Source of the DNA: Stegostoma tigrinum
Lineage: Eukaryota
NCBI RefSeq assembly: GCF_030684315.1
Contig: NC_081398.1
Coordinates: 2,902,402 to 2,966,401, forward strand
Direction of reading: 5' to 3'
Length of the DNA stretch: 64,000 bases
The translations under genes and the position numbers were made by a program. The notes under the pieces were generated by a model. The model was not told the DNA's origin, made no database searches, and worked only from the letters and a program-made list of their open reading frames with translations. How positions within the stretch are numbered: the stretch's first letter is position 1; each line of letters opens with the position of its first letter. Below are positions 1-64,000 of this stretch, one piece after another.

Positions 1-907
1 ATGGGTCAGCAAGTTTGCAGACGACACAAAGGTCGGAGGTGTCGTTGACAGTGTAGAGGGCTGTTGTAGGCTGCAGCGGGACATTGACAGGATGCAGAGA
101 TGAGCTGAGAGGTGGCAGATGGAGTTCAACCTGGATAAATGCGAGGTGATGCATTTTGGAAGGTCGAATTTGAAAGCTGAGTACAGGATTAAGGATAGGA
201 TTCTTGGCAGCGTGGAGGAACAGAGGGATCTTGGTGTGCAGATACATAGATCCCTTAAAATGGCCACCCAAGTGGACAGGGTTGTTAAGAAAGCATATGG
301 TGTTTTGGCTTTCATTAACAGGGGGATTGAGTTTAAGAGTCGTGAGATCTTGTTGCAGCTCTATAAAACTTTGGTTAGACCGCACTTGGAATACTGCGTC
401 CAGTTCTGGGCGCCCTATTATAGGAAAGATGTGGATGCTTTGGAGAGGGTTCAGAGGAGGTTTACCAGGATGCTGCCTGGACTGGAGGGCTTATCTTATG
501 AAGAGAGGTTGACTGAGCTCGGTCTCTTTTCATTGGAGAAAAGAAGGAGGAGAGGGGACCTAATTGAGGTATACAAGATAATGAGAGGCATAGATAGAGT
601 TGATAGCCAGAGACTATTTCCCAGGGCAGAAATGGCTAGCACGAGGGGTCATAGTTTTAAGCTGGTTGGTGGAAAGTATAGAGGGGATGTCAGAGGCAGG
701 TTCTTTACGCAGAGAGTTGTGAGAGCATGGAATGCGTTGCCAGCAGCAGTTGTGGAAGCAAGGTCATTGGGGTCATTTAAGAGACTGCTGGACATGCATA
801 TGGTCACAGAAATTTGAGGGTGCATCCATGAGGATCAATGGTCGGCACAACATTGTGGGCTGAAGGGCCTGTTCTGTGCTGTACTGTTCTATGTTCTATG
901 TTCTATG
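1..907 (+). mobile_element. Young CR1-clade LINE, 3' part of ORF2 (RT C-terminus) plus 3' UTR and (GTTCTAT)n tail
   Basis: ORF 119-817 with CR1 motifs LVRPHLEYCVQFWAP and FFTQRVVRAWNALP; FADD codons at the window start; tail gttctatgttctatgttctat at about 885-907. Confidence 0.93.
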
Positions 908-39499: not shown

Positions 39500-39667
39500 A
39501 ACATGTGATTATTATAATTGATTCTAATGGCTGTATATTCTTTAGAAACTTCCTATTGGATAAGAAATGGGAGGGTTATTGTGGGTTGAGCTGAATATAA
39601 GTAAACAAATTATAGTCAGCCAGCTTGGTGGCTGTTTGTATTTAGCAGTGTGTAGGAAGGGTGGTTA
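39500..39667 (+). promoter_or_regulatory. Putative ZP3 proximal promoter
   Basis: E-box CATGTG 39502-39507, inverted CCAAT (ATTGG) about 39556, TATAA about 39596, about 70 bp before the ATG. Confidence 0.5.
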
Positions 39668-42600
39668 ATGATGTGGTCCTTATTTTTAGTTCTTTTTTTA
39701 GTTGGGGTAGTTTGTTGTAATCATAGTGAATATTTAATACAACAAGAGATTCTGAAGGGTAGGTTCAGGGTGACCTCTGCTTCTGACCCAATTCCTAGTG
39801 ATTGGGTTCTTGCCACTATTACAAGTATTTCCTACTCCTCCTCAGTGCATGCTATTGTGGCTCTGTGTGGGAAGGAAGTATTACTGGTGGTGGCAAAGCT
39901 AGACCTATTTGGAACTGGCCACTTAATCCAGGCTGTAGATTTGATTCTAGGGCCTCCAGGTTGTCCATTCACACATGTAGACACTTGGATGAATATTGTG
40001 CTCTTCTACTATCATATCTCTGACTGTGGCACTAATCTTGTAATGGTAAGATGGTCTATCAATTCCACTCTATCAGTTTTTTTTGTTTTGGCCTTTCCTT
40101 TGTTCCTTTTACTTTCCTTTCTCTAGCTTTCCCTTTTTTTGTTTAGGGGACTAGTAAGAAGCAAACTATTTGTTTCTTAATTTGTGTTTTATATTCTTAA
40201 CTAATGTTACCACTAATGTTATTAACACTTCCTACTTTTCAGGTCACTGAGCGCCATCTCCTCTACTCTAACCACCTGTACTACATGGTAAAGGAACCTA
40301 GGCTGGCCATTGTGCGAACTAGTTTAGACATGGCCCTCATTGAATGCCATTATCCCAGGTAATATTTCCTAGGACCTCATATCTGTTCTGGTTTTCAGTG
40401 TAAACTGGAAGTTGATGGCCTTTCCTTCTGGTAGGAAGGCAGATGTTAACAGTCAAGCTGTCTGGCCCACTTGGCTCCCCTTTAAATCACTCTTGAATGA
40501 TGGGAGATTTTTGTCGTATTCCCTGCGACAGATGAATGGTAAGGACCAAGATGCTTGTTTAAATGATGGCTGGAATTTCAGAAACTGTGTGGCTGAGTTC
40601 AAACTGAAGTGCCTGTTGTACCTTTGGCATTTTCTTCCACTTTGTAGATAAGTGGGATGCAGAGCGTGTATCAAATGTCTACTATTTGGGAGAGCTTATC
40701 CATATTGAGGCCTCTGTCATGACTATAGGCCATGAGCCATTGCGGCTTTATGTTGATAACTGTGTGGCAACGTTGACTCCAGACAAGGATTCTACTCCCA
40801 GATACCAACTCATTGATTTCAGTGGGTAAGGCTGTACTTTAATTAATTAACATGCTTCAAGGCTAACAATCCTATTAGTACATTGATGTATTCTGTCCAA
40901 TTCTTTCCAGCTGCCTTATGGATAGTAGAGTTAGTGGTTCCTGTTCTTCTTTTGTGTCACCAAGAGCTCATCAGAACAAACTCCAGATCAACCTAGGTGC
41001 ATTCAGATTCTTGAACGGAAGGAGTTTGGTAAGATCGTCTGAGTTAACTAACACCTCCAGAGCAACATACTGCTGGGCTTCTTCTCTATGTAGAAGTTGA
41101 GGGGATTTAATTGTGCAGTTCAATTCAGGGGCTTGTTGTTTCTCCTTACCTCAATGTTCCACTATTCAGAAGTCTAGGAACCAGAGGATACAGATCTGAT
41201 CAACAAAACACTGGCTGAAATGCTGAGCAGCTTCTTCAAAAGCTGCATAGATAAGTGAGAAGTAAACTTCTAGGCCTTTAACAGTAGTGCTAGATTGGTA
41301 ATGGTTGGTTTACCGTAGACAGCCGGCATGGACTTGGTGCCATGAAGTGGTTGCTTTCTGTTGATAGTGATGTTGTCTTACTATCACTAGAATCCAGAAA
41401 CTACTTGATTTTGCAGACTGCTTAGGTTTAAAGGCCTGTTAATGACCAAATTTTTGCTAATGGTGGGTGAGATTGTAAGCCCATTAAGTAATGTAGGCAA
41501 CATGTGGGTGATTGGCTGCTGAGATGGGTTGGTTAGAAGGCTTGCCTCAGATCTCAAACATTGTCAAAATTGCTATAAGTGCTCAGGCTGCCTTACTATT
41601 CAATTTGTACTATGTTACTTGCATAGTAACATTTCTGTATTAATGACAGGCAGCCTTCTGGACTCATAAATTCTAGAACCTTAACATTTTATTTTAACTA
41701 AACATATCAAGAATGAATGCCATGGGGGTGGGGAATTCTATTCATGAAATGAACTACAATATTCTAAGTTCCATGTGTTTAAAGTTTAAATGCATGTTTG
41801 CTTTTAACAAAGTTGATCTCTTCATGGCCTCACTAAAAATGTCTGTACTTGGCTGATGGCAGAGCAAAATTACAAATGCATAGTATTCATAATGACCTCA
41901 GCTGTGGTAACCATTAATGTCAGCAAGTATCTTGATTAAAATTGCAAGAACAGATGTTTTCAATCAGTTGGCTAATAAAGTCCAATGGGGGTATTTCTTA
42001 ATCAGTAAGATGTGATTCAGCATTTTTAAATCCCAGCCTGGATCATGATCCATTGAAACAGACCTGATCTGCCCTCCAAGGGTGTTTGATGTAATTGTGG
42101 CTCCCACTCTAGTTAAGGCCCATTGAATATTGAAAATGGGCTCTTTGAATGGAGAACACTTCAAATGGTCAGGCTGAGCTAGGAGTTTTTAAACCTATGA
42201 TCCACACCCTGCCTCCTCCACCCCCTCCTGCAATGGCAAAATGGGAGTGGGATTTGTATCTCCAAGTCCTCACCACCATTTTTAAGTCATCTGTCTAATT
42301 CTACACACATCCAGTCCCATATCCCTGATTTTAGGGATTATTTTTCAGGGATTTTTGGTATTTGACATGAATTGGGAGTAATGGGTAAAACTTGAGTCAT
42401 CCAATTTGGAGTTGCATGTCTTTAAATTGCCACAAACTATATTTTGAATTGGCTCTTTATGAAATTTCATAATCAAATAAGAAAACATTAACTGTTTGCA
42501 TAATGCAAACAAGCTCACTCAAGTGAGCAAGCTAAGCTTTACCTCATGTAGCTAAATGCCATTTAATTGGTTAATAGTTTAGTCAAACCAACAGGGTCTG

Positions 42601-43990
42601 TCTCTGGCTGTCCAGGGTTTGATCCTTGTGCAGTGTTCTTTGAAGTTCTGCTAAAGAATCCTCAAGTGGAATTCTTAATGGAATTTTGGCTTGTGAAGTT
42701 TGACATGACATTTGATCCAGAGCATTGATTTGATTTCTGGAGGCAAGTCTGTAACTTGTCTTCAGAATGTTCCTGTTCCTTGTTAATTTGGCATTAACTG
42801 TCTTAAGACATCACTTTCCTTCTGCAGACAAAGGGTTTAATGACAGGAATGTCCTGATGTAATCTTAATTGTCCATTTGACATGAGGTGGCAGGGTATCA
42901 AGTAGTGTTATGTCCTCCCTTCTAGAAATCAGTTTGCTGCTTTCAGGATGGTTAGTTAACATTGTTCTTAATTTCTTTAGGCAGTTGTCATTGTCTCTGG
43001 AAAAGTTATTCCAGCAAGTGTTGCTGATTCTTTTGATCTCTGAACAGTTAATGTTTTGAAGTTGACAGTATCATAGCCTCTCCTGATCTGAGATTTTTAT
43101 TGCAGATCTTCATCACCTGTAATTTAAAAGCCACTGAGATAGGTAGAGTGCCAGATCCAGCCAACAAAGCTTGCTTCTTCCAGAAACAGGAAAATGAGTA
43201 AGTAACTCACCACTGGTTTCTCCACAAATTATTGATAGCAACCTGAGAAATTGCCCTTTCACAGGTGGATCCCTGTAGAGGGATCGAATGAAATTTGTCA
43301 GTGCTGTGACCATGGGAATTGCAGAGGCAGCAGAGGAAATGTTGGCTTTCACCAGAGAACAGCTGGTATGTATTTCTGGGACAGGATATTTTATTGTTTT
43401 ACCTTGGTGCTTAAAGTTGTTTGAGATAACTGGCTTAATCTGAGGGTTATCATAGCTTGGGCAAGGGGTAGGGTTGAGAAGGCAACTGCTGTCGGTAATG
43501 ATCCCCCAGTGGTTTTTGTTACTCTGCTTTGCAAATCAGCAATCCAGTTAAACTGACTCCTAATTTATCTGATTGCATCAATACTTCAGCATTTCAACTG
43601 CTATGTAATACAAACACACTGTTTAGTGTTTCAATCTCAGGATGACCAATTAAGGACAGGAGAAATTCAGATGGGACCTTTGGTAATCCTGGCTTCTGAG
43701 TCTGGAGACTTTGCTCCTAGAACGCAAACGGAAAACCAGAATATATCAAATGGACAAGGAACCCCTGAGCACAGTAAGATCTAGAATCACCCGGCTTACT
43801 CAAACCTTCCCTGTACTAAGAACTAACCAAAAACTTGTTTTCTGCAGATGGTGTGCACCTGAAGATCATAGTGGGAGTAGTAGGAGCTGTGGCTCTGATG
43901 CTGTCAGGCTTGGTGGTAGGAGGGATTATAATCTGTGGATATCTGACCATTTTCAATCTGTACAACAAGCTAATCAAGCCCTCCATTTAG
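39668..43990 (+). CDS. ZP3: Zona pellucida sperm-binding protein 3-like (ZPC), 9 coding exons, about 458 aa: 39668-40045, 40243-40358, 40435-40538, 40648-40825, 40911-41028, 43106-43197, 43265-43365, 43627-43773, 43848-43990
   Basis: All GT-AG introns phase-compatible, total 1377 nt; signal peptide; DLFGTG, CGT, IECHYPR, PTWLPF, YYLGELIHIEASV, DNCVAT, GCLMDS, IFITCNLK, NKACFF, ICQCCDHGNC; EHP EIQMGPLVIL; TM helix; AATAAA 44015-44020. Exact paralog not determined. Confidence 0.93.
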
Positions 43991-46560: not shown

Positions 46561-49500
46561 TGGCTTGAATTATCTGCCTGTACTTTATTTGTGATTGTAC
46601 AGTATAGAAAAAAGACCTGTCTGTCCAATTCACTATGCTGACTAAGCTTCACCAAATAAACTAGTCCCATTTTCCTGCTTTTAGCTCATCCTGCAAACTT
46701 ACCAATTCCTGTACCTGACCAAATGTCTTTAAATGTTGTAACATGCGTGCATCTACCACTGCCTCTGGCAATTCATTCCACATAAGCCACCTTGTAGAAA
46801 AAGCTGCCCCTCACTTCCCTTTTTTAAACTGAATAGTGGATGGGTTTTGGGGAGTCAGAAGGTAAGTTACTTCCTGTGGGATTCCTCATGTCTGACCTCT
46901 TGTAATCACTGTGACCAGCCCATTTTGTTCCTAGTTAATGGTAACACCAGAGTGGTGTTACTGGGGATTCAGTGACGGTAATGCCACAATGTCAAGGTTC
47001 AAAGGTTAGATTCTCTTGGACAGTACTTGTGGCAAGAAGTTTGCTACTTCTAAGCCCAATTCTAGATATTGTTCAGGCCTTGCAGCTTTTTGGTCATAGG
47101 CTCTTCAATATCTGAAGAGTTGTGAATGGTGCTGAACATTGTACAATTAGTGACCATCTCCACTTCTGATCTTTAAAATGCTGAGAAAGTTATTGAAGCA
47201 ACTGTATTTGGGCCTAGAAAACTAAATTTATCTCCAAGATTTTGCTCTGGAACTGAGGTGACTGATCCCCAACCACACACCCTCTTCTTTGTGCTAGGTG
47301 TATGATTCCATCCAGCAGAGAATTTTACCCCACGTTGTCTAGTTCTGCTAGGGCTCCCTGATGCCACACTTGGTCAAAAGCTGCCTTGGTGTCAAAGCAG
47401 TCACTTGTCTCAACTTTCAGAGTTCAGCTCTCCATTTTTGAACCAAGGCTGTACTGAGGTCAGGGCTTTGTGGCACTAGTGGAACCAAAATGAGCATCCA
47501 AGAGGAGATCCGAGATAATGGGAACTGCAGATGCTGGAGAATCCATAACAAAGTGTGGAGCTGGATGAACACAGCAGGCCAAGTAGCATCTCAGGAGCAA
47601 ATGCTGCTTAGCCTGCTGTGTTCATCCGGCTCCACACTGTTATCCAAGAGGAAATTATTACTAAGTAACTGCTACTTGATAGGACTGTTAAGGATCCCTA
47701 CTGAGTAGACTAGAGTGGTAACTGGTTGCATTGATTTGTCCTTTTTGTAGATGGGTCATATCGGAACAACCTTCCCAATTGCTGGTAGATACCAATTGTA
47801 GCTCTGGAGCACAAATCTTCAGTATGACTACTAGAATGGTGTCCAGGCCTGTGTAGCCTTTGCAACATCCAGTGCCCTCAGCTAGTTCCTTGATATCAGA
47901 TGAAGTTTATCAATTTGATAAAGGCTGAAGTGAGCAAAATTTAAAAACAGGGAAATTTTTGGATTTGAATAATTAAAGGTTGGCTATGCTGGTGTCCATC
48001 CTCAAGATGGATGCAGATGAAGGGAGAGCTGGAGAATTGAGTACATGTACAATAATAGTATTTGGTGATCTATGTGAGGAACTTGAACAAAACAAAATTG
48101 AGGAACTTAAATCTGAATTGATATTTCAGATTATGGATAATAAGATGTTGAATTTTAAGACAATTATATAATAGATTTCAGTTTATCCACATGTAGGTTA
48201 TTTAAGCAGGTCATCACTTGATGTTCTTGATCGTACTTTAACCTTTTAAGGCAAAGGGGTGGGAAAGTAACATCTTGCCCTATAAAAGCAAATGTTTCCA
48301 AGGAAGTGTTTTTAATGACTCTCATGTTAAATATTTGACACTCAATTTCATTAATAGTATGGCTGCTGACTTTAGTTACAATTACACTTTTTTTAAAGAT
48401 AAAGAATGATGGCTCCCTTTTCAGAGGTAGTATGGAAGTATTTAAAATCAGTAGGATCAGGGCCATAATCTTTTGCATCAGCTCCTCCAAATGCAATTAA
48501 ACAGCATGAGAGCATGGAATTGGTCACTTTTTTAAAGGTGGGGTAAAAGTAATTAAATCAGTGAGCTATCCTTCACACATTTACATATGTCACCTGTAAT
48601 TTAAACACAGGACTGATCTCATGTGGAGCCAAGCTTTTACATTAAGCTAAATTAGAGCATGCAAATAGGTGACAAAATGTTGTCACTAGAATTGTATTTA
48701 CAACTGTAAGAATTGTTGAGCTATTCCAACCCCTGGGGAGGAACTGTAGGGTTAGTGGGGATACTTTTTGTGAAGCTAGCAGTTTTATAGCTAAACTAAG
48801 TCACTGATTTTTCACAAAGAAAGCACTAATTGATTAATCTGATTATAGTATTCTGCCTAAGCATAGACAATATAGATTGTCCTAACATTGAGTTAGCTTC
48901 ATTAACCTAGAAAAGTACCAGGCAATTGCAAGCAGGGTGTAGATAATTTTGCTTTTACAGCTAAGTGAGGAGCATCTGGATCCAGGCTTCCAAGGTTTTC
49001 TAATCAGCCTGTTTTAATTCTCAATCCTGGAACAAGTAGAACTTCAACTCAGGCCTCCTAACTTGAGTGGGGACACCTACCACTGGGCCTCGAACCATTT
49101 TATCCCTATTCTGTCAATTGAATGTGTCACCATATAACCCACAGTATCCCATTGATTTTTGACTTAAAGTAAATCTGATTCTGCTTTCTAGGCAACCTGT
49201 TCCAAGGTTATTACCCACCTTGGGAACAGGTGGCACTTGAACGAAGGTCTCCTGGCTAAGTAGGGACACTACCAATGCTGCAGAACCCTAATCTCATTTA
49301 GTCTTAATCTAGTTTATAACAAACCTGTCCAGATGTTCCCACTTCTGGACCAGGTGCGATCAAGTTGGTCAAACAAGAACTCGCTTTAAAACAATGTTGA
49401 TTATTTGCGATCAATCTGTGCCCCTCAATGCAGATTAATTGTCCCTCAGAATTGGTTCCAATAGCTTCACTAACAGGTTAGGTTGACTACCCTGGTTTAT

Positions 49501-52428
49501 TCCTTGCTCCTGTGAATATATTCACAAGGTATTGTGGTATCATCCTCATCAATTGGCATTACATTGTGCACTGGTCAGGTAGCAATCAGATGACTTTTTA
49601 AAAGCATAATCAAGAGATCAAAATTGCTGCCCAATTCTGTTACATCTCCATAAGCTATGTAACAGACTGTAAAGGTTACCCAAAGGCACTCAGTACTTTA
49701 AGTCCTTTCTCATGGAATTCAAGTTCTTTAAAATTAATTTTAAGATTACTTCATTTCTGGGTGTGTGTGTGTGTGTGGTCTAATTCTCCATATTTATTGA
49801 TGGAGAACCAGGCCTCTAGGAGTTCCTGTGCTTGTCTCTGTTTGGCCTGTCCTAGGATGCTGATGTCCCACTCGAACTGGTTGTTCTCCTTTTTATCCAT
49901 GTGGATGGAGATAAGTGATATTCATGACCAATACTTGTGCTGAACAGCTCATTTCTGAAGGGTCCTGCCCCAAAACATCAACTTGCCTGCCCTTCTGCTG
50001 CCTGGCCTGCTGTGTTCCTCTAGCTCCACACTGTTACATCTGACTCCAACATATACAGTTCTTACAATCTCTTGAACTTCTGCCTCTTTTTCATCTGCCT
50101 GAATATGTGATCATAGAATCCCTACAAAGTAGAAGTAGTCCATTTGGTCTATCAAGTTCCGTTTGACCGATCAGGTCCATGCCTATTTCCTCATCATGAC
50201 TTCATTTTTAAGATAGCAACATTTGAGGACATACTCATTCATCTTTTGTGTATGCCTTTTCATATAACTTCCTTCAGTCTTTTTGATGCAAATTCAACTA
50301 ACCTCTGAACTGAAAATATCCACTTTGCCCTCTTACTTGTTCTTACTTTTCCTCAACCGGTTGATCCAATGTAATTTCTAATAAGGGAACTCCAACTTCC
50401 TTTTTGATTTTTTTTTTTTTCCCCACCTGTTTCAAGCTGTGGCTTTGACCCTGTTACCATGCAGTTAGGTAAAAATCCCAGGATATATTTCCTGTAACAT
50501 CTCAGCTCTCTTTTTTTTTTTCTCTACTGGCTTTTCAACCTCAATAGGCATCACTCAACTGATCCACCTATACCATTTGAGGATCCAGAGCAGGGAATTT
50601 CTCGATTACTCCTATCACCACTTTTCATTGGACTGTCCAACCTCACCTTGTATAATGGAACACTACTCTTGCTATGAATTTCACAACCTTTTCTGGCAAT
50701 ACTCTTTCCAAAGTACATACCTCCTCATCTCTCACCATCTGATTTGCTCATGTATCTCTTTTTTTTAAAAATTTTACTTTCTTTACTTACTATGGTACAT
50801 AAGTAAACCTTACTCTCTCACAGGTAACTTCTTTAAAGAGAGCTGGTGCACTTATCAATCAATCCCTCACCAGCTGTACATTCTTTTGTGGCTGTTTAAC
50901 TTCCACTGAGATCTCCTTAACCACTTAATAAATCCCACACACTCATTCTGCTACAACACCTGTCTCCTCAGTGCTTTCCTTAAGTCACTAACTGACTTCA
51001 TGTGCTCTGCTTTACTGTACTGAAAGCATCAGTGTGTTTTTAACTTTTCCACCCTTGTGGGTTTCTTTTTCTAACCTGTGGTAAACTATCTTTACTATCC
51101 ACTGAGGTCTTGTTTTCCTTTACAACCTGAGGTTTTCTCTTTCCATTTCTATCCTTCACCATTTAAATTGAAGTCAGAAGGCAAACTTTGATTTATGAAC
51201 TAATTCATAATCTTCTGCTACTAATCTTGTAGTTATTGCACATGAGTTCTCACTACAGGGAGTGAATTTTTGAACTATCCAAAATAAGTAGAGCATCATA
51301 TGTCAGATCTATTTTCAATGACCTTATCCATACATCAGTCAATTTATGATCCTTTCAAACTGTTTGACCAGGTTCCCTCCTTAGATTCCACAAACATTGT
51401 CTGTAGGCTTTTGTCATTAGCTCACATACTTAGCTATTTTCATGACTCATACTCTCCAGGTACCTCCTCTGATAGACCTGGTGAGGTATTGCATCACTGC
51501 CTACCAACTTTGAGAATCAACAATATTCACAGTCACTGGCCATTCCATTTGTTTAGCCACTTTCTCAAATGAAATGAAAAAGGCTTCTGTCTCTCTCATC
51601 CAATGCTTGGGAATATTGAAACAGATTACCTGTAGGCTTTTGGCTATGATGGATTTGCTCTTCGCTTTCCCGATCACCACTACAATCTTCTGTCTTTGCC
51701 TCTGCCATTTTAAATTGACTTTCTTTTTCCATCACCAACTTCTGAAGTTCATGACCTCTTTCTTTTTTCCTCTGTTCTGCTAGGGCCTTTCTTTCTTTTT
51801 TTCCCCCCCATGCCTTTTAAATAGAAATATTTAAACTGTTTTATTTGTTTTTCAAATACATTTGCAGTTGAATTTTGGCTTGCATCGTATTTACAATTGC
51901 CAGGACACGTGCTGCAATGATCTCCCCTTACCTCCCAGAAACAGGAATCTCCAACTTCAATTTATTTGCCAATTCCAAAAGCTTTGCTTTGCCCACTTTC
52001 TGTAAAACATCTGAAGTGAAATCTTCCACCCCAGGAAACTCTTAGTGACTGAGACATGTTACTATGTAAGGCACATCCTGTTCAAACCAACCAAATACAG
52101 CAGCAGGAATAAAGACACCAACACTCACCACTTGCTGTCTGAGTCCGATTGTCCTAAACCCATCTGGAATTGAGGATTTTTAGTCTGATGAGCCCCCAGT
52201 TTGTTATTTTACCAGATTTTATCAACTATATCAAGGAGATAGCCTCGACCCTAACTTTTCTTATTTAAAGGTTAGTGTAAGGTGCAGTGTTTCAGCTGTA
52301 ATTTGACTAGTCACACTACATGGTGTTAAGTAAAGCACACTTTTTATTCTTACTCTTTAGTTAAAATACAAACAAAAGAAAGAAGAATTGATATAACTAA
52401 CACCATTCAACAACATAACAGAATAATA

Positions 52429-52652
52429 TCAGAGATAATGGGAACTGCAGATGCTGGAGAATTCCAAGATAATAAAATGTGAGGCTGGATGAACACAGCA
52501 GGCCAAGCAGCACCTCAGGAGCACAAAAGCTGACGTTTCGGGCCTAGACCCTTCATCAGAGCTCTGATGAAGGGTCTAGGCCCGAAACGTCAGCTTTTGT
52601 GCTCCTGAGATGCTGCTTGGCCTGCTGTGTTCATCCAGCCTCACATTTTATT
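52429..52652. mobile_element. Young Penelope-derived palindromic insertion with a hammerhead motif on each strand
   Basis: Arms about 52469-52561 / 52562-52654 with one visible mismatch; 14-bp TSD ataacagaataata (52415-52428, 52653-52666). Confidence 0.9.
52558..52597 (+). ncRNA. Minimal type I hammerhead ribozyme motif (mirror copy on -)
   Basis: CUGAUGA (52564-70), A, stem II GGGUCUAGGCCC, GAAAC-GUC (52584-91); AGAGCU upstream can pair with AGCUUU downstream as stem I. Confidence 0.7.
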
Positions 52653-53394
52653 ATAACAGAATAATAGATTATTTAACAACTCAACAACATCCCATAAATA
52701 CACCCCTGGAAGAAGTAAATTCAGTAAATCAGTGACTCTCATGCAATGTTTCTACGGTCCAGGAGGAAAGAACTGAAAATTCTGGCAGTGACTGAACCCA
52801 AGCATTTGGCTATAGGAGGGATAGATGCATGGCAGCTTCTCGACCCCAACAACTAAAGCTAAATTAAATCTCTGGCTCTGTATGAGTGTGACTCCACCCA
52901 TTTATGCAGCTTCTATTTTGCTAACTTAAGGCTCAAGGCCTTACAAGCTGCATACTTTATTGACTGGGGAGACAATGGCCTAGTGGTATTATTGCTGGCC
53001 TGTTCATCCAGGGACCCATAGCCTGGGAACTAGGGTTTAAATCCTGACATGGCAGATCGAGGAATTTGAATTTTAAAAAAAATCTGGAGTTAAGAATCCA
53101 ATAATGACTGTGAATCCATTGTTGATAAAACTCATCTGGTTCGTTAATGCTCTTTGGGGAAGGAAACTGTCATCCTTACCTGGTCTGGCCTACATGTGAC
53201 TCCAGACCCACAGCAATGTGGTTGACTCTTAACTGTCCTCTGGGCAATTAGGGATGGGCAATAAATGCTGCCTGGCCAGCATTACTCTTACCCTGTTAAT
53301 GAACAAAGAAACAGACTGCTCACCGCCCCTGTCTCCAGCTGTCCATTTAAAAAAAAGGACAAAATACGCCTCTTAAAGCTACAGTTTTGTCACA

Positions 53395-54130: not shown

Positions 54131-54513
54131 CAACAGTGTGGGATTATGGGCTTGGCCTCCCAAGACAAGGCTTTATTAAACAGAATATAGACCCTTATTT
54201 TTAGTTTGCCTGTATTTCCATTTAAATGTAGACTCGAAAAATATTATTCTTGTTTGTCATACAACCAACTCCTCTTAACTTGCAAGTGAAGAAATATATT
54301 TTAAGTTCTAAAATATTACCTATATTAAGATTAAGCGCACTCAGTCTTCACTTGAATCAATCACCTGTCACGAGGCAAGAGAAATATCCTCCATTTACCT
54401 ACGTGTTCCCTGTGATATTACACATCGATTTTGTTGAAGCAGTTCTGTCGCCTTGCCACCACTGCTCCTGGGTCTGTCATAGCTCTGCGGTCACTCTATT
54501 TGTGGAATCTCAC

Positions 54514-54623
54514 CTCAACGGCTTTTATGATGGGCCTGGGATTTTCTGTGGAAGGGATGGGGAGCCTGCGGATCTTCATTGTATCCGGTTCCGAGATGGT
54601 CAGTTCCCCTACCCAGGAGCCCA
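54514..54623 (-). other. Candidate 110-bp exon of a minus-strand transcript from the CpG island
   Basis: tttttttaaaactttcag acceptor and GAG|gtgaga donor in sequence not recognised as repeat. Confidence 0.4.
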
Positions 54624-54639
54624 CTGAAAGTTTTAAAAA

Positions 54640-54890
54640 AACAAATCGCTGCAAAAGCTCGGCAGGAGAGAAATCAGGGTTAACGCTTCGGGTCGAGTGA
54701 CCCTTCCTCGGAACACAACTCTGATAACTCAGCAGGGCAGAAATCAGAACTAACTCCTCAGAGTGTTCCGAGGAAGGGTCACTCGACCCGAAGCGTTATC
54801 CTGGTTTCTCTCCACAGATGCTGCCAGACCTGCTGAGCTTTTCAGGCAGTTCCTGTTTTTGTTTCTGGAATTCAGCGCCCGCGGTTCTTT
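54640..54890. mobile_element. Penelope-derived inverted-repeat insertion (third family)
   Basis: 54675-54716 and 54763-54805 are reverse complements with stem GGGTC-ACTC-GACCC. Confidence 0.8.
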
Positions 54891-55850
54891 CCATTTTGAT
54901 TTGCTCGCTGAAAGTAGCCATTTCAAACGGAAAATTGAGTGAGTTGTTCTGCAGTTAACAAGTACCCAGGGAAAATTCGAAATCTGCTCCCGGGACCTGA
55001 GCGTCCACACCCGGCCGCACCCCGCCCAACAGATTACGTGACAACATCCCAGTCCCACACGTTCTCCAGGACTCCCAACCCTGACTGTTTCCCCACACAC
55101 TGTCGTCCGCCCCAACTCTTTTCCCGGGAGGAGCACCCAGCCTCAACCCATTGAGCGGAAAGCCGCCCGTTAGTATTGGGAAAGCAGCTGATCGCCTGAG
55201 AACGGTCTAGGCCCGAAACGTCAGCTTTTGTGCTCCTGAGATGCCGCTTGTCCTGCTGTGTCCGTCCAGCCTCACATTTTATTATCTCGGATTCTCCAGC
55301 TTCTGCAGTTCCCGTTATCTCTGAGCGGTTGAGTATTGCAGTGCGCCAGCAAACCTGAGGGAGTGAGGGCGAGGAGCAACAACATGAGGCAGGGGACGCT
55401 CCGACCTGGTCAGCAGCTTCAAACAAAAATCGCTGGAAAAGCTGACAGCATCCTCTCAACAGTTTTTCTGTCTGTCCCTGTGGCCCAGAGGTTTCTCCAC
55501 TTTGTATTTTTGTTTACGCCCCAACAGCTGGTTAAGCTGGGCGCCTGGCTGCTTCTATGTGTTTACACGGAGCGCGGTGGGTCCGCTCGGGAAATGCCGG
55601 CGGCGATCCTGGAGTCACTCCAGATACCCAGGGGCCGAGGGAGGGGGGGGGGGGAGAGAAAGGGAAACAAAAAAAATAAACTTTATCCTAAATTTTCTCG
55701 TATCTCTAATGAAGGTGACATCGAACTGTGGTGGACTTGTGCACATCTCACCGTGTCTCCAGAGATGAGAGTGACTATTAAATTGCTTCCAGTCTAACAC
55801 TCGGTTCGATTGGTTATAGATACACTGGTTGCTTAGTGAGCGAATCGGTG
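54880..55850. promoter_or_regulatory. CpG-rich promoter-like island
   Basis: Visible CpG excess over flanks; GC boxes (ccccgccc about 55020, ccgccc about 55107), ttacgtga CRE-like site about 55034. Confidence 0.6.
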
Positions 55851-56664
55851 GGATGTGATAACAGGAACTGCAGATGCTGGAGAATCCGAGATAATAAAAT
55901 GTGAGGCTGGATGAACACAGCAGGCCAAGCAGCATCTCAGGAGCACAAAAGCTGACGTTTCGGGCCCAGACCATGAATTTGTCCCACCTTTGGCGGTTCC
56001 TTGCTCAACCTGTTCGTGGAAATGTCGACTGGTTCAGTGGGTTAGATGGTTTGGTGGGTGGGGGTGGGGGGGAAAGCCTGGGAGTGTTGGTGTGCCAGGG
56101 GGACTTTTGCCTCATCAGTTGTTCGAATATAACCCTTTTCTGATCAAATGGCGCAGTGAGTAGCCTACCTGACTGTGACCCAGTTGATCCAAGACTCAGC
56201 TGCGGTGGTTGTAACGTGGTTCTCAGGTAGGTCCTTCCAGTGCAGGCGTTTCTGATCAACTTGTTCCGAGATGTGATGACATCCCTCTGGTGTAATGGAC
56301 GGATGAGAGTGGCCTTTGTTGCACATCACCTCTTGGATTCTTCCTGGTCGAATGCCAACGTCACGAAGCAATTTGTGAAAGCGCTCAGTTCTTTACCCAA
56401 GCAAAGTGAACGGTCTCCAAAGCAATCAGCCACAGGCAATCGATCAACCTGACCGATGGGATAAACACTTCCCACGGGTACTTGAACCGGTAGCAAAAGG
56501 CTGCAAAATTACACTTGGAAAGTTAAGATCAGTGACCCCGAAATGTGCTGTTCACCGAAGAGCAGCCCCTTGCTTTTTAATTGCTACCAAGTCCTTTCCC
56601 AATTAGTTTAGAAGGAGCTTAGCCCTGAGAAAAGGTAACGCCAAACGTTAGCATATTAAGAACT

Positions 56665-56863
56665 AACGCAGTGTGGAGCTGGAGAAACACAGCAGGCCAG
56701 GCACCATCAGGACGTTTCGGGTCGTGATCCTTCCTCAGAAATGGGCCCCGAAACGTCAGCTTTCCTGTTCCTATGATGCTGCCTGGCGTGCTGTGTTCCT
56801 CCAGCTCCACGCTGTGTGTTATCTCTGACTCCAGCAGCTACAGTTCCTACTATCTCTGAACAA
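56665..56863. mobile_element. Penelope-derived inverted insertion disrupting the glycosyltransferase exon
   Basis: TSD attaagaact (56655-56664, 56864-56873); removing it restores frame HIKNCLVVTVFML. Confidence 0.85.
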
Positions 56864-58211: not shown

Positions 58212-59165
58212 TCCAGATTCAACGTATCATTCTCCACCACTTCTGCCACCTGCAATCTGATCCCACTACGAAGGATATATTTCCCTCCCCACCCTTATCT
58301 GCCTTGTGGAGGGACCGCTCTCTCCACGACTCCCTCATCTGCTCCATGCACCCCATTAGCCCCACAACCTCTGGCACCTTTCCCTGCAACCGCAGGAGGT
58401 GCTACACCTCCCGCCTCACCTCCATCCCAGGCCCCAACAAAACCTTCCACATTAAACAGATGTTCACCTGCACATCAGCTAATATGGTATACTGTATCCG
58501 CTGTCCCTGATGTGGCATCCTCTATATTGATGAGACCAAGCAGAGACTCGGAGACCGCTTTGTAGATCACCTACACTCAGCTCGCGACAAACAACAACAT
58601 CTCCCAGCTGTGAACCACTTCAACTCCCCCTCCAACTTCCTGGATGACATGTCCATCCTGGGCCTCCTCCAGTGTCACAACGATGCCACCCAGAAACTGC
58701 AGGAACAGCACCTCATATTCCGCCTTGGGAGCCTGCAACCCAATGGTCTCAATGTGGACTTTACTAGCTTGAAAATCTCCCCACCTACAACCTCATCCCA
58801 AGACCAGCACCCCCTCTCATGTCTGCCTCATTGACCTGTCTGTCTTCTCTCCCACCTATCCGGTCCTCCCACCTCACTGACCAAACCTCACCACTACCTA
58901 TCTACAGACACCTTTACTAGCTTCATCCCCATCTCCTTGACCTGTCTGTCTTCTCTTCCATCCTATCCACTCCACTATCTACCTGCTATCACTGCCCCTC
59001 CTCTCTATTTATTTCAAGAGCCCCCTTCCCCTCCCCCATTTCTGAAAAAGGGTCCCAACCCAAAACGTCAGCTTTCCTGCTCCTCTGGTGCTGCCTGGCC
59101 TGCTGTGTTCCTCCAGCTCCATGCTTTGTGACCTTAGATTCCAGCATCGGTGGTTCTTATATTCT
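58212..59165 (+). mobile_element. Penelope-like retroelement 3' part: GIY-YIG endonuclease remnant plus pLTR
   Basis: FTCTSANMVYCIRCP*CGILYIDETKQRLGDRF..HFN..QEQHLIFRLGSLQPNGLN; decayed hammerhead at 59041-59072. Confidence 0.88.
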
Positions 59166-62074
59166 CTTAGTCAATTGTGTATTGTGCTGTCTGCAGTTGC
59201 AGCCTGCCTGTCCAGGTCTGCAGCTTGTTTAATTCAGTATCTTTGCACAGATACTTTGGCCAATGCTTGGCTTGATTTCCCAGCATGCTTGGTGTATTAT
59301 CTGATTCTGCCATTTTGAGCGGCCCATCCAGCTACAAATACCCTGGGGGGTTACCATTGACCAGGAACTGAACTTGACCAACCGGCGGTCCCTCCACAAG
59401 GCAGATAAGGGTGGGGAGGGAAAAACATCCTTCGTAGTGGGGTCAGATTGCAGGTGGCAGAAGTGGTGGAGAATGAAACATATATACAGTGCAAGAGCAA
59501 GTTGGAGTAAATTGCCTTCTGATTCCCCAAAGTCTGGCCACAATCTACAAGATATGTCAGGAGTGGAACAGCACATTTCTCACTTGCCTGGATAAGTGCA
59601 GTTCCAACAATACTCAAGATATCATCTAAGACAAGGCACCTGCTTAATTGGAGCTCAGAGATCTGTGAGCACTGCTTGGGCTGAATGTTGTTTCTGCACT
59701 CTCTACATTTTGTGCTTCTATGCAATTGGCAATGTCCAATTCACTCCGTCCATCATGGATGCTGAGTAGCAGCAGTGTGTACTACTTACAAGATGCAGAA
59801 CTTCACTAAGGTTTCTTCATTTGCACCTGCCAAACGCACAACACTAACATCTAGACAAGGGCAACAGATATATGGGAACACCATCATCTGCAAGTTCCCC
59901 TCCAAACCACATGCCATCCTGACTTGAAATGTATCATTGTTCCTTCAGTCTCAATATATTAAAGTCCTGGAAATCCCTCCTAACAGCATTGAGGGGGTTT
60001 ACCAAATGGACTGCAGTGGTTCAAAATGCCAGCTCATCATCACCAGAGCAGCTAGGGATGGACAGTAAATGCTGGCCTCGTCAGTGACATCCGCATCCAA
60101 CAAATTAATAAAACAAATTTTGTGAACTTTCTCTAGGACTCTGGATCCGACCAGTTCGGTTGAAGGCTCTTTCAAGATTACAAGTTCTTCCTGTCTCAGG
60201 ACTGGTCCTAGTGCCGCAGTTTGTGTCAGCCTGCCTTTTCCACTTATTTTTGTCACATTGTCTTGTCTCTCTTTGCCTGTCCTCAATGAATTTGAGTATC
60301 CCTATCATTTTGGCTCCCTGATCACTTTGTCTGCTTGTGTTGAGTTTACATGTGCTCTTTCAAAGCCGACGATGATGAATTTGTCAACTGTGAGGCAATT
60401 GTGAACTACATTGCTATTGGCAAAACCTCAAAGGAATTTATTTCTGGTTACATTCATCAACAAGTCAAGGTCTACCAAAATGGCAACAACAAAGTGATCC
60501 ATTATCTTTTGGTCAATGGAATCCACCTAGGCTTCCCAGCTGGTGGAGGATACATGGTGCCTCGATCATACACTCCAGAACTTAACCGGCAGTCTGAGAC
60601 TTTGTCTGCTTTCCCGGTTGATGATGTTTTCACGTGATTTATGGCTTTTGCTGGCAAGATCCTATTGAAACATAAGCAGTTTTACATGAAAGGACTCAAG
60701 TGCTGTGTGCAGCATTTTAAGGATGCATTTACTGTACATTCATTAACTTTGCAAAATAGTATAGAAATGTGGGAAATGTTACACAAAGAAAAATAAAAAG
60801 AATAATTGGATAGAGGTCTAATTACTTGGGTGAATGAAAAGCTTTATTTTCAGATACAATATGGAGCTACCAATCCTCCAGAATTGTCCTGGACACTGCA
60901 GGACCACTGATTAAACTCAGACACTAAGTAACATGGGAGATAAATCATTATATTGTTTTATCTTTTTCACCTTTCACTTTCTTTTGCTAATTTCGCTGCA
61001 TTGTAAGGAAAGGACATTGCAGTTAGGGGACAAGAGTTATTTGCTTGAGAATAGATGATTATCTAATTGTGTAAAATTGATCCTATGGGTTTACCAATAG
61101 ACCTGTGAAAGAGCATAAGGGTATGTGGTGAGGATGGATGTGCCTTGTGGTGTGGGTCAATTGATTGGAACGGGGATTTCATATAATAGGAGCTCCAGGA
61201 ATAGTTGGAAGCAGAGTTGGCAAACCTCTGACTAGACACAACCCATTATTCAGAAGATGAATTACATTTATATACTGCCTTTGATCTAGCAAAGCTTTCC
61301 ATGGTACTTCACTGGAGTGAGTATCAAATAAAGTGATATTATGACTGAAAACTGAAACTTTGGTCAATGAGGAAGATATGAAGCAGTGTATAAAAGTGAA
61401 ATGGTGTAGGGAGAGAATTGTAGAGTTAAGGGCTATGATAACTAAAAACAGGGACATCCATTGGTGCAGTGAGCAGAGCTGCAGAATGTGCAAGAGGCCA
61501 CTGTTGGAGGAGCTCAGAGATCTGTGAGCACCGCTTGGGCTGAATGTCGTTTCTGCACTCTCTACATTTTGTGATTCTATGCAATTGGCAATGTCCAATA
61601 ACAAGACTGTGTCTTGTGCACCTCACCAACTGAGTCACCATGGTTAGCTAGCATTATGGTGATTTAATCAGAGGATGTGGAGATATTCACCAAGGTCATC
61701 TCCCCATACCCTGGATCACACCACAAACAGTTGATCCTTGTACAGAACTGGGTTCTCAAATCTCCCTTGCTTCAGTTTGTTGATTTAACTGATTTTCAAA
61801 AAACAATTTTGATTGTGGCATGGAATGCTGTAATTTTAATCACCATTACTGTTAAGCAGTTCTAAGAATATCAGGAATTAGTAAGATTTTAATAAGTGAA
61901 AATAATTTTAATCTTTTCATTCATTTTATTAGAAGCACCTGTAATGTGATTGCTTGGTTGATATTCAGCTCTTTATTACACCAAAGATGTTGCAACGCCA
62001 CTGGCCAGCCCTCTGTTGCCAGTGGCTGTAGTTGTCACCTACTGAACCTCCTCAGCCAAACTTGCTCAGTTAAT

Positions 62075-62415
62075 AAAGTGTGGAGCTGGATGAATACAGC
62101 AGGCCAAGCAGCATCTTAGGAGCACACATCCCGCCCCCTTGGCCTGTCTGTCCTCCCCGGACTGACCTATCCCCTCTCTACCTCCCCACCCATACTCTCC
62201 TCTCCACCTATCTTCTCCTCTATCCATCTTCAGTCTGCCTCCCCCTCTCTCCCTATTTATTTCAGAATCCTCTCTCTTTCCCCCTTTTCTGATGAAGGGT
62301 CTAGGCCTGAAACGTCAGCTTTTGTGCTCCTAAGATGCTGCTTGGCCTGCTGTGTTCATCCAGCTCCACACTTTTTTATCTTGGATTCTCCAGCATCTGC
62401 AGTTCCCATTATCTT
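62075..62415 (+). mobile_element. Penelope pLTR fragment with inverted 5' piece; a second insertion at 62740-62879
   Basis: ctgatgaagggtctaggcctgaaacgtcagc at 62289-62319; second insert has TSD ctcttcttgcatga (62726-62739, 62880-62893). Confidence 0.85.
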
Positions 62416-63099
62416 TGCTTAGTTAATAGCTGGTTGATGGGTTGTTCAGGTGAAATACTGGTTCATACTTTTCCTAGAGGAGATAGCGGATCTGATTCTT
62501 TCTTATTAAACAATCCCTGAACAGTCTGTACATTCTTTTGCAGATCTTTAGCTTCCACTGGGATCTCCTTTACTACTTTAATAAACCCTACGAGCTTATC
62601 TTGTTTTAGTACATCTGTTTTCCCAATGCGTTCCCCCCCCACTCTAGTTGACAGTTTCCCTTGATATAATTAGTAAATCCATCTGGTACGAGATGAGGCC
62701 CTTTCGAGTACAGGTGAAACCTAACCTCTTCTTGCATGAAAGCTGACGTTTTGGGCCTATGAAGGGTCTAGGCCCGAAACGTCAGCTTTTGTGCTCCTGA
62801 GATGCTGCTTGGCCTGCTGTGTTCATTCAGCCTCACATTTTATTATCTTGGATTCTCCAGCATCTGCAGTTCCCATTATCTCTTCTTGCATGATTATGTT
62901 CTGCCCCGGCGGGTGCTCCTGATTAATAGGTCAATGGATTCCTCTGATTGGTGGGTCAGTGGGGTGTCTCTGGTTTAGTGGGTGCCTCTGATGGTGTGCC
63001 AATGGGAGCCTCTGGTGTTCAGTGGGAGTCTCTGATTAATGGCCAAAGGGTGACACTGATGGTTCAATAGGAGCCTCTCGTCGCTCTCTATCGAGTCAG

Positions 63100-63246
63100 T
63101 GGGTTATTGTCGGTTGCTGCAGTTCCGCTTCTGGTCGTTAGGAGCCGCTGGTTGAGAAACCGGAAGTGTACCTTCATAATAGTTCCCACGATACTTCCGG
63201 TGTAACTCTTTAACCATCCCCCCCCCCCTGTAGAAAGGCCGCTAAG
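63100..63246 (+). promoter_or_regulatory. ZNHIT1 housekeeping-type promoter
   Basis: Two opposed ETS/GABP sites CCGGAAGT (63160-63167) and ACTTCCGG (63193-63200); CpG-rich; upstream degenerate ctctgattgg repeats 62915-63080. Confidence 0.7.
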
Positions 63247-63517
63247 ATGGTGGAGAAGAAGCGGGAGAGTTTGGGTAAGGAGCTGGGAGGTGGTAACTCT
63301 CGGGCCCGCCTGTTGCTGCGGTATTGACCCGGGTTTGTGCTGTTTGCAGGCAGGTTTCAGGAGGGCGGACAGCGGCGGGTCCTGGACCAAGCCACCCGCC
63401 AGCGGCGCCTCAACCGGCAGCTGGATGCCTTGGAGAAGGACAACTTCCAGGACGATCCGCACGCCAACCTGCCGCAGCTCAAGCGGCTCCCGCAGTTTGA
63501 TGATCACAACGAATCCG
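63247..63517 (+). CDS. ZNHIT1: Zinc finger HIT domain protein 1 (SRCAP complex subunit), exons 1-2: 63247-63274 and 63350-63517; gene continues beyond the window
   Basis: Spliced MVEKKRESLGRFQEGGQRRVLDQATRQRRLNRQLDALEKDNFQDDPHANLPQLKRLPQFDD matches the ZNHIT1 N-terminus; 75-bp GT-AG intron. Confidence 0.95.
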
Positions 63518-63644
63518 GTGAGGGCCCGGCGGAGGGGGGGGGGGGGGGGGGCGAGAATGGTCGGCGTTGGGGAGGAGAAGGGTGTTTGTGGAGTGAGGCC
63601 TGGGGATGTGAAAGGGGCTGCGGGAGGCGGGAGGCCGGAGCTAG

Positions 63645-64000
63645 TCACCGGAGGGGGCTGTGGAGGGAGAAGGGAGGATGATTGTTGGAGGGATTTAGGG
63701 ATGGGGGGGCGGTCACTGGAGGGAGAGGGAGAAGGGAGGATGATTTGCTGGAGGGGATTGAGGGATGGGGGGGCAACCGGTCACTGGAGGGAGAGGGAGA
63801 AGGGAGGATGATTTGCTGGAGGGGATTGAGGGATGGGGGGGCAACCGGTCACTGGAGGGAGAGGGAGAAGGGAGGATGATTTGCTGGAGGGGATTGAGGG
63901 ATGGGGGGGCAACCGGTCACTGGAGGAAGAGGGAGAAGGGAGGATGATTTGCTGGAGGGGATTGAGGGATGGGGGGGTGACTGGTCACTGGAGGAAGAGG
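63645..64000. repeat. G-rich 68-bp minisatellite in ZNHIT1 intron 2
   Basis: gcaaccggtc recurs at 63773, 63841, 63909 (period 68); runs off the window edge. Confidence 0.95.

Follow-up and report, generated by a model that had tools for sequence, protein, structure and literature searches.

Within a 64,000-nt stretch of the Stegostoma tigrinum genome (contig NC_081398.1, positions 2,902,402 to 2,966,401, forward strand; hereafter the window, in whose coordinates all positions are given), a palindromic insert at 52429–52652, referred to here as insert A, carries a hammerhead ribozyme core on each strand. [quoted passage not shown] Taken singly, the locus is of little consequence, being a small version of a known PLE layout; its value lies in the population to which it belongs, with 26 pLTR-family matches and six two-arm inserts bounded by target-site duplications (TSDs) in 64 kb.

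Anatomy of insert A

The following features were assigned to insert A and its flanks, with strands where applicable.

52415–52428, unstranded: left TSD, 14 bp, equal to the right copy
52429–52468, minus strand: PLE 'tail' of ~40 nt, on one arm only, as tails are described in PMC8557442, PMC3846280 and PMC11167929
52429–52561, minus strand: tailed 5'-truncated pLTR copy, unit 1–133 by arm alignment
52532–52559, minus strand: minimal type I hammerhead core, strict pattern match, predicted cut after 52532
52558–52565, unstranded: 5'-to-5' junction without spacer, its central 4 nt forming the loop of the predicted hairpin
52562–52652, plus strand: inverted tail-less pLTR copy, unit 1–91 by arm alignment
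52564–52591, plus strand: minimal type I hammerhead core, strict pattern match, predicted cut after C52591
52653–52666, unstranded: right TSD, 14 bp, equal to the left copy

The original prediction had described a 224-bp insert with a perfect 14-bp TSD and a near-perfect palindrome of ~185 bp, and both descriptions hold exactly: the TSD copies match at 14/14 positions, cannot be extended and enclose 224 bp, and the palindrome consists of two arms of 93 nt each (52469–52561 and 52562–52654) that are complementary at 92/93 positions and have no spacer, the sole mismatch being 52513 C against 52610 A. Among random window pairs taken as a TSD control, an exact flanking repeat of at least 14 nt was found in 0/1000 and one of at least 12 nt in 3/1000. 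The asymmetry of insert A had been overlooked: inside the TSD, 133 nt belong to the minus-strand arm and only 91 nt to the plus-strand arm. Both CpGs of each arm are kept in surroundings with a CpG observed/expected ratio of ~0.2, and the insert contains no open reading frame (ORF). Insert A is real and young, and most likely a single recent product of PLE integration in miniature.

Regarding a host gene spanning insert A, none of the 10 ORFs from 50.5–54.8 kb had a Pfam match. No outside match to the insert A junction was detected by translation across it or in phage records, nor was a 25-nt pLTR motif matched in bacterial or archaeal genomes, these being sets that hold little or no shark DNA.

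Sibling two-arm inserts and the pLTR family

The 26 pLTR-family matches were detected with an arm profile at E <1e-3 and cover 4% of the bases of the window. Among 15 loci examined for TSDs, these were convincing in eight (A, B, C, D, E, F, G and J) and not in seven; regarding three further loci, a TSD was found at P (11/13) and at 34.2 kb (10/10) and none at 26.9 kb. The best 7 of 20 local inverted repeats correspond to six two-arm inserts, insert A and the following five siblings.

47510–47641, minus strand: sibling D, TSD matching at 13/14, both arms lacking a hammerhead
54632–54902, plus strand: sibling P, from a different subfamily, TSD matching at 11/13, changes in both cores, arms separated by a 46-nt spacer
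56665–56860, plus strand: sibling J, TSD matching at 12/13, only the inverted arm having a core
62076–62414, plus strand: sibling C, TSD matching at 13/14, only the tailed arm having a core
62740–62879, plus strand: sibling B, TSD matching at 14/14, arms with 5' ends at units 6 and 16, neither core complete

Positions within the unit are numbered from 52561 on the minus strand (unit 1), which places C3 at unit 3 and the cut after unit 30. All six two-arm inserts have a 13–14-bp TSD with 0–2 mismatches, arms joined 5'-to-5', one tailed arm ending near unit 127–133 and one tail-less arm, which starts near unit 87–93 or the equivalent in five of the six and at 35 in B. The same two end points are shared by single-arm copies with a TSD, E and F ending near 93 and G at 131.

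The junctions all differ, that of insert A occurring in 1/6 of the two-arm inserts. The arm 5' ends lie at unit 1/1 in A, 6/16 in B, beyond -159/37 in C, 39/48 in D and 20/-4 in J, where the inverted arm extends ~24 nt further 5' than the tailed arm; in P both arms have equal 5' starts, but the 46-nt spacer stands between them and aligns to the unit as a deleted extra (third) copy, with a score above all 500 shuffles. Intact cores number two in A and one each in C and J, while B has none complete, D has none and P has two altered ones. Since core content varies and layout is constant among these six, the conserved feature is the two-arm layout and not a paired ribozyme, and the proposal that insert A is a distinct non-autonomous unit was not supported by the comparison, the five siblings having other junctions and none of them two intact cores. 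Sibling P forms a second back-to-back hammerhead structure in the window, with the same two core changes in both arms.

In family 1, 12/17 arm 5' ends fall within unit -5 to 21, the 5' half of the hammerhead, and none at the cut site (unit 31), in a count that omits families 2 and 3 and in which H, I, K and L lack a TSD. This clustering points to a hot spot of termination or to the start of a transcript, and ties like that of insert A are thus expected at a modest rate. A permutation test for coupling between the 5' ends of paired arms gave a weak result, the median offset of 9.5 nt being reached in 84/720 permutations and two exact ties in 24/720, with the tie of P doubtful given a spacer that resembles a deleted third copy.

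Head-to-tail pLTR junctions were not seen in the window. The idea of a circular unit, whose first and last 6 nt match, was dropped, the head-to-tail junction being absent from the window.

The inverted arm of J (56665–56746) has a 13–15-nt deletion that starts at or within 2 nt of the predicted cut site; this deletion, one of three in the inverted arms of J and P, could conceivably have been left behind when a cleaved template was copied. Two tailed copies at 55196–55324 and 55852–55972 stand tail to tail without a clear TSD in CpG-rich DNA, and the former has several changes that create CpG.

Hammerhead motif and predicted folding

The hammerhead core that had been proposed for both strands was found there, at +52564 and -52559, by a strict minimal-hammerhead pattern that occurs at four sites in the window and at none in 100 shuffles. 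Across 13 window copies, stem II is paired in 90% of cells, slid controls being lower, and stems II and I together are paired in 84% of cells; the observed values were reached by 16–46 of 500 shuffles, and hammerhead covariation is thus only modest. Rfam gave no match at gathering score across the window, including no hammerhead match, and at insert A gave only sub-threshold microRNA (miRNA)-hairpin and chance matches, the best at 39.6 bits against a gathering score of 90. The minimal hammerhead motif is real in this pLTR family.

Regarding stem I, the claim that the palindrome junction supplies 6 bp, compared with 2 bp at 62289, is correct as far as the pairs themselves go (UA, CG, GC, AU, GU and AU), and these help when 6–12 upstream nt are kept. 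The claim does not carry over to the full-length RNA, where part of the supposed stem I is the loop of the predicted hairpin, and 6 bp are produced by only one of the 21 symmetric centre positions tested.

Either strand of insert A, if transcribed, is predicted to fold into a hairpin of ~90 bp at -193 to -195 kcal/mol, with a z-score of ~-26 for both strands, in agreement with the long dsRNA hairpin anticipated earlier. Forcing stems I and II in the full RNA opens a gap of 59.7 kcal/mol to this hairpin, and of 50–60 kcal/mol in nascent chains, since the core is sequestered by the antisense arm, which is synthesised ahead of it; within the full RNA the probability is 6e-20 for stem II and 2e-39 for stem I. 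With 20 upstream nt kept, the gap is already 20 kcal/mol. Each strand has one sense core, and the distance from A15.1 to U16.1, the stem III loop, is 2 nt only, so that stem III needs a second sense core as partner; in a model of two RNAs the gap is 122 kcal/mol for palindromes and 19.5 for direct tandem units. An accessible active hammerhead fold was thus not obtained by computation, and the self-cleavage originally put forward is disfavoured by the models. The hairpin most likely buries the ribozyme and would leave insert A cleavage-dead and at most a source of dsRNA if transcribed.

The stem II hairpin at 52572–52583 is self-complementary and could form a 12-bp intermolecular duplex at -22.6 kcal/mol, which may offer a second dimer route; a perfect version of it is present in copy F at 23.46 kb.

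Parent element

The derivation from Penelope assumed at the outset is supported by one longer copy in the window.

58224–59167, plus strand: copy K, a PLE 3' fragment that contains a Cys linker and the remnant of a GIY-YIG domain, with one in-frame stop, followed by the pLTR

Copy K measures 944 bp, and its pLTR, of the same family as that of insert A and with a degenerate core and a tail, lies directly downstream of the GIY-YIG remnant in the same orientation. Read with X at the stop, copy K encodes a Cys linker and a GIY-YIG-type domain. Neither the split nor the read-through remnant had a relevant Pfam match, and the GIY-YIG identity was therefore assigned through homologues: comparison with longer proteins gave eight matches among 179 candidates, the best relatives being uncharacterised proteins, from Rhincodon typus with 76% identity (E 2e-90) and from Stegostoma tigrinum with 71%. 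The Rhincodon typus relative has Pfam GIY-YIG above cutoff and a weak RVT_1; with E allowed up to 0.001, it has 31,989 matching representatives. A reverse transcriptase (RT) upstream of the endonuclease is absent from the truncated copy K, and RVT_1 was weak (below cutoff) in proteins P0002 and P0007.

In the predicted Stegostoma protein, alone among the 159 proteins compared, the endonuclease reads on into the pLTR, and its final peptide is identical at 12/13 positions to the translation of the insert A arm. The serine that precedes this peptide suggests, without proving, that unit 1 was templated and hence that no bases were added at the junction. The CX2-5CxxC linker, which is a character of Neptune/Nematis rather than Penelope/Poseidon elements (PMC8557442), is complete in P0002, its last Cys is altered in the copy K remnant, and a loose Cys-linker pattern was detected in 98 of the 109 retrieved proteins bearing a YIG-type motif. 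These sequences point to an autonomous PLE with a C-terminal GIY-YIG endonuclease, of Neptune/Nematis type by its Cys linker, as the putative parent of insert A.

Two inverted copies with 96% identity at 58224–58318 and 59385–59479 share one boundary of the PLE fragment, possibly through local rearrangement, and a 97% direct repeat is found at 59650–59740 and 61509–61599.

Comparison with known systems

PLE insertions are described with an inverted 5'-truncated copy beside the 5' end and a 30–40-bp tail at one end (PMC8557442, PMC8969392, PMC2377424), and head-to-head junction palindromes are reported as abundant, with 8–10-bp TSDs in rotifers (PMC3846280). Such inverted-pLTR insertions of endonuclease-bearing (EN+) PLEs (PMC3846280, PMC8557442, PMC2377424) resemble insert A in the 5'-truncated copy with an inverted copy at its 5' end, the TSD, the one-end tail of 30–40 bp, the palindromic head-to-head junction and the linked GIY-YIG ORF with a CX2-5CxxC-like linker, whereas insert A differs as an extreme miniature without ORF sequence, with a spacer-free 93-bp palindrome and a TSD of 14 bp compared with the 8–10 bp of the rotifer examples. 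Of the EN+ PLE characters, a tail at one end and an inverted truncated copy inside the TSD are present in insert A, and a pLTR directly after GIY-YIG in copy K.

In Poseidon_Ac (PAc) of Anolis carolinensis, the PLE protein is reported to cut and extend both target strands, to use two internal start sites that bound the tail, and to read an uncut RNA template through the hammerhead (PMC11167929). The two start sites fit the two end classes in the window and may be the source of the inverted arms, a proposal of the present analysis. PAc differs in belonging to the Penelope/Poseidon clade, whereas the copy K remnant has a Cys linker.

The insert A motifs share with the minimal type I hammerheads of PLEs the CUGANGA / GAAAC-GUH core, extra nucleotides before stem II, the lack of a real stem III and a short stem I (PMC4209133). 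Dual hammerhead motifs on opposite strands of PLEs are described as 100–700 bp apart (PMC4209133), whereas those of insert A abut, 4 nt apart, and each is therefore fully paired to its own antisense. A dimer requirement and weak activity are reported for minimal hammerheads (PMC4209133, PMC6765202). Non-LTR retrozymes, reported in the one chondrichthyan sampled, are likewise non-coding, derived from PLE pLTRs and equipped with a type I hammerhead, but form direct tandem arrays with at least two sense ribozymes, whereas insert A is an inverted pair with one per strand (bioRxiv 10.64898/2026.07.22.740005); it lacks the direct tandem units with complete hammerheads of a retrozyme. Neither this shark family nor a palindromic family of non-autonomous PLEs was found described in the literature searched, which excluded Repbase and the majority of subscription papers.

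Twin priming of L1 uses primers from staggered nicks and leaves an inverted 5' part inside one TSD. Insert A is alike in its two putative primers and in the inverted 5' part within a single TSD; the arms of L1 cover adjacent template segments, whereas those of insert A cover the same segment and thus form a palindrome.

Origin of insert A

In the favoured mechanism, a PLE protein would nick both target strands 14 nt apart, one 3' end would prime cDNA at the tail-end start site (unit 127–133) and the other at a second start site ~40 nt upstream (unit 87–93), and both cDNAs would run through the uncut hammerhead, stop early and become joined; in insert A both would have ended at the same base, giving the spacer-free palindrome. 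Two-site priming followed by joining would lead each strand to read the TSD and then antisense, and would leave exactly one arm tailed. As both arms of insert A cross the cut site intact, the template would have been uncut or religated. Self-priming fold-back would be an alternative route to the same product; self-priming has been proposed for PLEs (PMC3846280). It fits A, B, C and D and not J, unless J later lost its centre, and the two routes are not separated in this window.

Several observations weigh against this mechanism or against the cleavage-dead state. The exclusion of fold-back depends on J alone, which may instead reflect a later central deletion. Random truncation does not explain why both arms of insert A end at one base, and this base is the sole one of the 21 centres that raises stem I from at most 2 to 6 bp. 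Primer-template overlaps at the outer ends are 0–5 nt, with several poor placements (8–10/14), and do not prove target priming; one window with six two-arm inserts is the basis of the reading. The folding used nearest-neighbour energies, without Mg2+, tertiary contacts or protein, and the anole hammerhead was reported to cut only with protein (PMC11167929). The gap falls to only 4.8–6.5 kcal/mol when 6–12 upstream nt are kept, compared with 17.4 in the native copy C, so that a centre-truncated insert A RNA could, in these models, be a better hammerhead than its parent. The native context is also poor in folding (gap 17.4, tandem model 19.5).

A self-propagating non-autonomous family, in which the PLE protein would re-insert full transcripts of a palindromic master copy, is unlikely. 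The young and intact state of insert A (TSD 14/14, arms 92/93, CpGs kept) would suit it, the tail end could serve as a start site, the rotifer pLTR alone was inferred to suffice for mobilisation in trans (PMC3846280) and retrozymes have been proposed as PLE derivatives (bioRxiv 10.64898/2026.07.22.740005). However, the junction is found in only one of the six two-arm inserts, direct tandem units are absent, the outer end of the inverted arm lies at the second start site, as fresh synthesis predicts, and the enzyme would have to unwind a hairpin of ~190 kcal/mol. It appears very unlikely that insert A is an active ribozyme unit, in which the 6-bp stem I created at the junction would improve the hammerhead and two transcripts would cleave as a dimer: an intact core on both strands, the small gap at 6–12 upstream nt relative to copy C and the pairing of stem II in the 13 window copies (90% of cells) speak for it, whereas each strand has a single core whose stem III loop measures 2 nt, the gap grows from 20 kcal/mol with 20 upstream nt to 59.7 with the full arm and 122 in the two-palindrome model, no promoter or processing site was shown at the centre, and minimal hammerhead monomers are reported as uncut and dimers as weakly cut (PMC4209133).

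The long hairpin and the sub-threshold Rfam matches to miRNA precursors could also be read as a hairpin retained by the host, either a locus for miRNA or small interfering RNA or a DNA element resembling a miniature inverted-repeat transposable element, which is extremely improbable in view of the absence of Rfam matches at gathering score in the window, the weak matches that reflect pairing alone, the retro-type ends (tail, variable TSDs of 8–14 bp) and the youth of the insert. Perfect spacer-free palindromes are a known type of artefact, and a 99% inverted repeat occurs elsewhere in the window (1–341 / 907–1247); an assembly or library artefact from a fold-back read is nevertheless highly improbable for insert A, which has a 14-bp TSD, a tail on one arm, a mismatch between the arms and unique flanks on both sides, and which shares its layout with five diverged siblings. 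Rather unlikely, lastly, is a junction that is not accidental, such that a short pLTR RNA, which begins 2 nt ahead of the core, is copied from both start sites by a dimeric PLE protein, and the palindrome recurs and spreads as a family, acting as a dsRNA trigger against its parent or, when opened at the centre, as a better hammerhead with a 6-bp stem I. This is hinted at because both arms end at the one base that gives the 6-bp stem I, and because 12/17 of the family-1 5' ends are placed within unit -5 to 21, whereas the cut site has none.

The making of inverted pLTRs and tails by PLEs has been called unresolved (PMC8557442). Through the many short complete events it would supply, a shark genome could decide between two-nick, two-site priming and self-priming fold-back, and would also reveal if termination is concentrated in the hammerhead region. 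If the exact palindrome were indeed a spreading family, it would add to the non-autonomous elements with ribozymes a type that did not turn up in the literature searched.

Other features of the window

Exons of a ZP-domain gene, presumably ZP3-like, lie at 39656–43990 on the plus strand (ZP-C E 1e-11, ZP-N E 0.002), with a hydrophobic exon near 43.9 kb. CpG-rich DNA extends across 54–58 kb, and a possible exon without a Pfam match at 54400–54626 (minus strand) has splice-like signals, with an acceptor pyrimidine tract that insert P would provide. The start of a ZNHIT1 gene was detected at 63245–63520 (plus strand) in a CpG island (exon 63352–63516, E 8e-21), followed by a 68-bp G-rich tandem repeat at 63642–63981. 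At the other end of the window, the 99% inverted repeat at 1–341 and 907–1247 lies within RT-like ORFs, which we take to resemble a CR1-type long interspersed element, Pfam giving no match for 104–814, and reflects an inversion or an assembly effect.

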